A stretch of 64,000 nt of DNA, taken from NCBI RefSeq assembly GCF_055900595.2, contig NZ_CM148325.1. One strand, 5' to 3'. A program made the position numbers and the translations under genes. The notes below the pieces were generated by a model. The model saw nothing but the letters and a program-made list of their open reading frames with translations. It did not search any database and was not told where the DNA came from. Positions 52,468 to 52,831 of the stretch are shown piece after piece (position 1 is the stretch's first letter; every line of letters starts with the position of its first letter).

Positions 52468-52831
52468 GCCCTTCTCCCTTTGTTACAACCTGTCATCGAC
52501 AGCAACATTCATGATGGGCTGACTATGCGTCATCAGAAGATGGCTTAAATCCTCCACCCCCTGGCTTTTTTATGGGGGAGGAGGCGGGAGGATGAGAACG
52601 CGGCTTCTGTGAACTAAACCGAGACCATGTAAGGAATTTCGTGAAGTTGCTTGCAAAAATCGTGGCGATTTTATGTGCGCATCTCCACATTACCGCCAAT
52701 TCTGTAACAGAGATCACACAAAGCAACGGAGGGGCGTAGGGGCAAGGAGGATGGAAAGAGGTTGCCGTATAAAGAAACTAGAGTCCGTTTAGGTGTTTTC
52801 ACGAGCACTTCACCAACAAGGACCATAGATT
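52468..52831. promoter_or_regulatory. Divergent malK / malE control region with several MalT-box-like GGA(G/T)GA hexamers
   Basis: 364-bp intergenic region between divergent malK and malE containing repeated ggagga/ggatga/ggggag elements, as expected for MalT/CRP-dependent promoters. Confidence 0.7.

Follow-up and report, generated by a model that had tools for sequence, protein, structure and literature searches.

A malK-malE spacer that is very probably the Escherichia coli malEp-malKp MalT/CRP control region, and its conservation among Enterobacterales

The described system and the present locus

In Escherichia coli K-12 the divergent promoters malEp and malKp share a complex of MalT and CRP, described by Raibaud, Vidal-Ingigliardi and Richet. 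The activator MalT belongs to the STAND ATPases and has a LuxR-type DNA-binding domain. The region is a paradigm in two respects, co-activation by activator repositioning and the use of one shared nucleoprotein complex by two divergent promoters. The nucleoprotein complex at malEp and malKp is described in PMC3161199, and CRP's repositioning of MalT at malKp in PMC4125116 and PMC7408454. MalT boxes are defined by a GGA(T/G)GA core and a GGGGA(T/G)GAGG decamer (PMC7567727), and genomic SELEX in K-12 finds multiple CRP sites in the malEFG-malKlamBmalM spacer (PMC3105977).

Two further K-12 promoters, malPp and malSp, are built in a similar way. Both have a GGATGA core followed after 22 nt by CAAACT, no -35 element, and inverted cores farther upstream, like the promoters described here. 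However, malPp and malSp are single promoters, whereas here two promoters are placed on one array, and this array, unlike malPp and malSp, includes three intervening CRP sites and overlapping boxes in registers shifted by 3 bp.

The malK-malE spacer studied here is very probably the E. coli malEp-malKp divergent MalT/CRP control region. The first-pass annotation had already proposed that it is the known MalT/CRP nucleoprotein array driving both operons, and this is supported by orthology with K-12, the published box definition, invariance in 24 species and the promoter geometry. The region is already known, and the present copy adds no new biology. Its value is mainly that of a positive control, in which a genuine classic regulatory array was picked from raw sequence; by-products are a preference for GAAACT as the malEp -10 hexamer and the finding that the array spacing is fixed over 24 Enterobacterales species.

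The limits given for the region in the first-pass annotation, 364 bp between divergent malK-lamB-malM and malEFG, are exact. The spacer comprises positions 52468-52831, with the malK start codon (CAT on the plus strand) ending at 52467 and the malE ATG beginning at 52832. The six proteins are named by NCBIfam equivalog models, MalK, LamB and MalM for the minus strand and MalE, MalF and MalG for the plus strand; gene order and orientation are as expected, and all six matches are far over the curated cut-offs. Genes for MalT and CRP (malT, crp) are absent from the window, that is, the whole 64-kb stretch of DNA that was analysed. The two genes bordering the spacer are:

51352-52467, minus strand: malK, a 371-aa ORF and first gene of malK-lamB-malM (NCBIfam equivalog NF008233 MalK, 771 bits, cut-off 568)
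52832-54022, plus strand: malE, a 396-aa ORF and first gene of malEFG (NCBIfam equivalog NF007011 MalE, 776 bits)

Several features of the surroundings were recorded along the way. The malE-malF spacer (54023-54141) carries inverted REP-type palindromes, gccggatgcggcgtaaacgccttatccggcctac and gtaggcctgataagacgcgtcagcgtcgcatcaggc, which are the classic malE-malF REP/BIME element. The mechanical malF ORF (54142-55719, 525 aa) is 11 codons longer at its start than the annotated gene of the near-identical strain EC42405 (514 aa), and the coordinates suggest a 1-bp difference in length from EC42405 somewhere between the ends of malE and malF. Downstream, malG ends at 56624, and psiE (NCBIfam equivalog, minus strand) is only 93 bp away, followed by a 698-aa ORF and then pgi (56625-57128 region). 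The 698-aa ORF has no NCBIfam match; its size is that of K-12 yjbH. In K-12, xylE is presumably placed between malG and psiE, and given the 93 bp between these two genes it appears to be absent from the present strain. At Rfam gathering level there are four naRNA4/REP-type elements (3997-4067, 14615-14686, 49857-49927 and 61979-62050), one of them within the lamB-malM spacer, as well as STnc430 at 61765-61913, sraL at 21941-22080 (in a position that fits the K-12 gene order, in reverse orientation) and a SECIS_2 element at 1474-1528, which we take to be probably that of fdhF.

MalT boxes, CRP-like sites and promoters in the spacer

For comparison between species, a degenerate malE coding pattern was used to retrieve malE loci from 120 genomes of different species. 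Counting the pattern-retrieved set together with two E. coli reference loci, malK is divergent within 2 kb in 75 loci. Spacers of 24 Enterobacterales were aligned, including Escherichia, Citrobacter, Enterobacter, Kluyvera, Pluralibacter, Cedecea, Siccibacter, Shimwellia, Mangrovibacter and Pantoea, and it is to these 24 species that the statements on invariance below refer.

The first-pass annotation had described multiple GGA(G/T)GA hexamers in both orientations. Five exact cores are indeed present, one on the minus strand (52550-55) and four on the plus strand (52577-82, 52587-92, 52590-95 and 52746-51), and the three strings quoted as examples are found at 52587-52598 (ggaggatgagaa), 52746-52758 (ggaggatggaaag) and 52551-52561 (cctccaccccc). 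Together with decamer matches, the cores outline the following elements:

52548-52560, minus strand: MalT boxes next to malKp, in two registers offset by 3 bp, found by both decamer and core scans; 9 of 13 positions invariant; presumably sites 3 and 3'
52565-52571, no strand assigned: T-tract separating the inverted MalT boxes, which reads as an A-tract on the malK strand (about -50 to -56 of malKp); mean conservation 0.90
52575-52597, plus strand: two overlapping pairs of MalT boxes in direct repeat, the pairs 10 bp apart and the registers 3 bp apart; 18 of 23 positions invariant; presumably sites 4/4' and 5/5'
52731-52740, plus strand: degenerate MalT box GGGGCGTAGG, matching at 8 of 10 positions, with GGGCGTAG (52732-39) invariant; in direct repeat with 52744-55; presumably site 2
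52744-52755, plus strand: malEp-proximal MalT box with an exact GGAGGA core (52746-51) centred at about -37.5 of the inferred malEp start; GGAGGATG (52746-53) invariant; presumably site 1

Overlapping boxes offset by 3 bp occur at all three positions on the malK side, namely 52551-60/52548-57, 52575-84/52578-87 and 52585-94/52588-97. In the malKp-proximal pair, the first register is GGGGTGGAGG (52560 to 52551), which matches the decamer at 9 of 10 positions; the second is GTGGAGGATT (52557 to 52548), which has the exact core GGAGGA (52555 to 52550) centred at about -37.5 of the inferred start. The direct repeats at 52575-52597 combine GGAGGA at 52577 and 52587 with GGAGGC at 52580 and GGATGA at 52590. 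Of the two registers, the one that has its exact GGAGGA core at -37.5 is probably productive, because its geometry is the same as at malEp, malPp and malSp. The T-tract between the inverted boxes consists mostly of five or six consecutive Ts, is kept in nearly all of the 24 species and lies where an UP element or intrinsic bend would be expected. This tract might bend the DNA intrinsically or offer an UP-element-like contact on which the repositioning of MalT depends.

Scanning with the MalT and CRP consensus, a check that the first-pass annotation had pointed to, gives a different outcome for the two proteins. For MalT, with up to two mismatches, the 10-mer GGGGAKGAGG is found 8 times in the spacer vs 0.46 expected from the window-wide rate, and its sole perfect copy in 64 kb is at 52575-84. 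One of the eight is a false positive:

52470-52479, minus strand: malK ribosome-binding site AGGGAGAAGG, purine-rich, 3-12 nt upstream of the malK ATG and kept in the 24 species; not an activator box

For CRP, the number of matches is not significant by itself (3 found vs 1.15 expected). The three CRP-like sites, for which the consensus TGTGA-N6-TCACA was used, are placed between the two MalT arrays:

52640-52655, no strand assigned: CRP-like site a, CGTGAAGTTGCTTGCA, with 3 mismatches; TCGTGA invariant or nearly so
52674-52689, no strand assigned: CRP-like site b, TGTGCGCATCTCCACA, with 2 mismatches; TGTGCGC conserved; distance to site a 34 bp in each of the 24 species
52703-52718, no strand assigned: CRP-like site c, TGTAACAGAGATCACA, with 1 mismatch; GATCACA invariant; distance to site b 29 bp in each of the 24 species

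What argues for these three candidate sites is the conservation of their half-sites and the fixed spacing of 34 and 29 bp, and not their count. Relative to the inferred malEp start they are at about -75.5, -104.5 and -138.5. Three is also the number of CRP sites in the title of Vidal-Ingigliardi and Raibaud 1991, as that title is cited in PMC5320558. A possible fourth site at 52608-52623 (TGTGAACTAAACCGAG) was set aside as a weak candidate with 4 mismatches, of which other genera keep only a TCTG stub. It is worth noting that around this position (52606-52623), where TCTG is partly conserved across genera, Cedecea and some Enterobacter carry the palindrome TGCAACCGGTTGCA.

The promoters themselves were placed by conservation and by distance from the cores:

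52522-52527, minus strand: malKp -10 hexamer CATAGT; 5 of 6 positions invariant; 22 nt downstream of a GGAGGA core in 24 of 24 species
52515 (+/-2 nt), minus strand: inferred malKp start, 7 nt downstream of the conserved -10
52774-52779, plus strand: malEp -10 hexamer GAAACT; positions 2, 4 and 6 (A, A, T) invariant; 22 nt from the core in 23 of 24 species
52786 (+/-2 nt), plus strand: inferred malEp start, 7 nt downstream of the -10

With these starts both proximal cores are centred at -37.5 and the starts themselves are 271 bp apart, which we take to be the literature figure for the distance between the K-12 malKp and malEp starts. Converted to K-12 U00096.3, where the position is 4246811 - (window position - 52440), the starts would lie near 4246736 (malKp) and 4246465 (malEp). 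The supplements of PMC3415461, in which measured transcription starts were sought, make no mention of malE or malK. For malEp, the hexamer TATAAA at 52768-73 is more consensus-like, but none of its 6 positions is invariant and it breaks the 22-nt geometry; the alignment thus points to GAAACT as the conserved malEp -10, even though TATAAA looks better. A sigma-70 consensus scan of 52400-52900 finds no complete -35/-10 pair, as would be expected of activator-dependent promoters. A terminator scan found nothing, and no Rfam family is found within the spacer. In the malK 5' UTR, a weak hairpin CUGUC-GAU-GACAG (52502 to 52490, minus strand, about -6 kcal/mol) is missing from several of the 24 species and is not a conserved element.

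Comparison with K-12 and the E. coli population

The window is E. coli DNA. The K-12 malEp-malKp region is the orthologous locus: it has the same flanking genes and does not differ in any MalT box, CRP half-site or -10 hexamer. Between the present spacer and that of K-12 MG1655, 356 of 364 positions are identical (97.8%), with no indels and eight substitutions, which are (window/K-12) 52484 T/A, 52537 A/G, 52600 G/A, 52624-25 AC/GT, 52645 A/T, 52725 A/G and 52730 A/T. Seven of these lie in linkers or UTR. The only one inside a site is 52645, the first spacer base of CRP-like site a, where most of the 24 species have T. What distinguishes the present copy from K-12 is these eight substitutions and the fact that their combination of alleles is rare among sequenced E. 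coli.

Of 5426 complete E. coli genomes, 5412 have a single match to the 501 bp around the spacer. This sequence is 100% identical to that of the bovine strain EC42405 and 98.4-98.6% identical to that of most other E. coli. Shorter segments of 55 bp were counted separately, and the numbers below are approximate because BLAST can trim mismatches at the ends:

52545-99: MalT boxes 3-5, identical in 5075 of 5411 E. coli genomes
52598-52652: linker between box 5 and CRP a with most of site a, in its present form in 14-18 of 5426 genomes
52668-722: CRP sites b and c, identical in 4838 of 5402 genomes
52731-85: MalT boxes 2 and 1 with the malEp -10, identical in 4950 of 5411 genomes

Thus the segments that bear the sites are present in their common form, shared by 90-94% of E. 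coli genomes. The rare form of 52598-52652, with its four differences from K-12, occurs among others in EC42405 (bovine), Z0117EC0005 (dog) and 2020CK-00188 (human). In E. coli SYNB1934 (NZ_CP080246.1), only the malE-side 59% of the query matches, which suggests that the malK side is disrupted or replaced there.

Could the present copy be the same control region in a functionally altered state? In this reading the rare haplotype, in which four substitutions fall in CRP site a and its linker to MalT box 5 and A replaces T beside box 2, would have changed CRP dependence or promoter strength relative to K-12. Its rarity speaks in favour, as do two of the changes themselves: at 52645, where most of the 24 aligned species have T, CGTGAT becomes CGTGAA, and at 52730 GGTGGG becomes GGAGGG, one step nearer the MalT core. 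We nevertheless consider it very unlikely, given that K-12 has the same sequence in all MalT boxes, in both -10 hexamers and in the recognition half-sites of the three CRP sites, that the segments bearing them are common alleles, that seven of the eight substitutions fall in columns which vary among species, and that CGTGAA is also found in Enterobacter cloacae. Several of the substitutions match E. albertii, which suggests ancestral states and not new changes. As far as the alignments can tell, the rare linker haplotype is apparently innocuous, and a functional change through it finds little support. It is likewise doubtful, if less so, that constraint on the spacer goes beyond what the listed MalT and CRP sites account for, a reading for which the indel-free spacing over about 258 bp and the conserved A-tract would speak, or, as a separate idea, that the rare linker/CRP-a haplotype is a natural regulatory variant. 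What speaks for either is conservation.

Control as in K-12 remains the preferred reading. The mechanism is established for K-12, and since all sites are identical we infer by near-identity that the present strain acts in the same way. The spacer has two back-to-back sigma-70 promoters without -35 elements, each with an asymmetric MalT box whose GGAGGA core is 22 nt upstream of the -10 and faces its own operon. The malK side adds further MalT boxes, inverted and in two registers 3 bp apart, and the malE side a second, degenerate box in direct repeat, with the three CRP sites between the arrays. MalT oligomers, activated by maltotriose and ATP, would bind the boxes cooperatively, while cAMP-CRP would bend the central DNA; at malKp this bending is predicted to move MalT off the non-productive boxes and onto the productive ones, 3 bp away. 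The resulting complex of about 210-260 bp would recruit RNA polymerase in both directions, and maltose transport would thereby depend on both inducer and catabolite status.

Conservation across species and departure from chance

Conservation in the 24-species alignment comes in short blocks. On the malK side these are ACTATG (52522-27), AATCCTCC (52548-55), TTTTT (52566-70), and TGGGGGAGGAG and CGGGAGGATGAG (52573-96); in the CRP part they are TCGTGA (52639-44), TGTGCGC (52674-80) and GATCACA (52712-18), and on the malE side GGGCGTAG (52732-39) and GGAGGATG (52746-53). The five exact cores are invariant except for a T-to-G change in Pantoea, which is still within the consensus. Of the 80 invariant positions of the spacer, 56 fell among the 111 that the consensus scans had selected in advance (odds ratio 9.7, p=6e-17), and none of 363 circular shifts of the 111-position mask matched the real overlap. 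From the malKp -10 to the malEp -10 (about 258 bp), the spacing of the elements is the same in all 24 species, apart from a 1-bp change in one Pantoea and, in five species, a 1-bp change between boxes 3 and 4. The linkers vary freely in sequence, and the 5' UTRs span 34-76 nt and 45-159 nt. Such fixed spacing over divergent linkers is predicted by a stereospecific protein-DNA assembly.

The cores are also far more frequent than expected by chance. The 64-kb window has 49 GGA[GT]GA cores, a mean of 0.27 per 364 bp; five is the window maximum for any 364-bp stretch and is only reached by stretches overlapping the malK-malE spacer. Composition-matched shuffles of the spacer gave a mean of 0.35 cores, and five were reached in none of 5000. 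The hexamers could still be read as compositional noise or as Shine-Dalgarno-like sequences of small unannotated ORFs and not as activator sites, with GGAGGATG... at 52587 and 52746 and the mechanical 67-aa ORF 52523-52726 (minus strand) as examples, and it is true that GGAGGA looks like a ribosome-binding site, that one of the eight decamer matches really is that of malK, and that mechanical ORFs overlap the spacer; but this is almost certainly wrong, excluded as it is by an enrichment far above the shuffles, by conservation in invariant blocks of 6-12 nt with freely varying linkers of fixed length, which is not ORF-like, and by the geometry of core, 22 nt and -10 that is shared with malPp and malSp, and weakened further by an ATG that follows GGAGG directly, without the spacer that initiation needs, and by the position of most MalT boxes upstream of both inferred transcription starts.

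As an array of MalT sites, the arrangement can be followed beyond the aligned species. In Yersinia, Photorhabdus, Xenorhabdus, Hafnia, Rahnella and Serratia, an inverted core lies near malK, direct cores follow at a distance of 26-37 bp, and a further core comes about 195-205 bp beyond, close to malE. This order of cores is seen in a reduced form in Vibrio, Photobacterium, Moritella and Pasteurellaceae, and the spacers of Vibrio and Pasteurellaceae are longer or have fewer exact cores than that of E. coli. Core density in malK-malE spacers beyond Enterobacteriaceae is 4-15 per kb vs about 0.7 per kb in the flanks, and 5-15 per kb for Yersinia, Photorhabdus, Hafnia, Rahnella, Vibrio and Pasteurellaceae. 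In Vibrio, a MalT box has been reported at the malK promoter, and the malK 5' UTR is the locus of the sRNA Vsr217 (PMC8265627).
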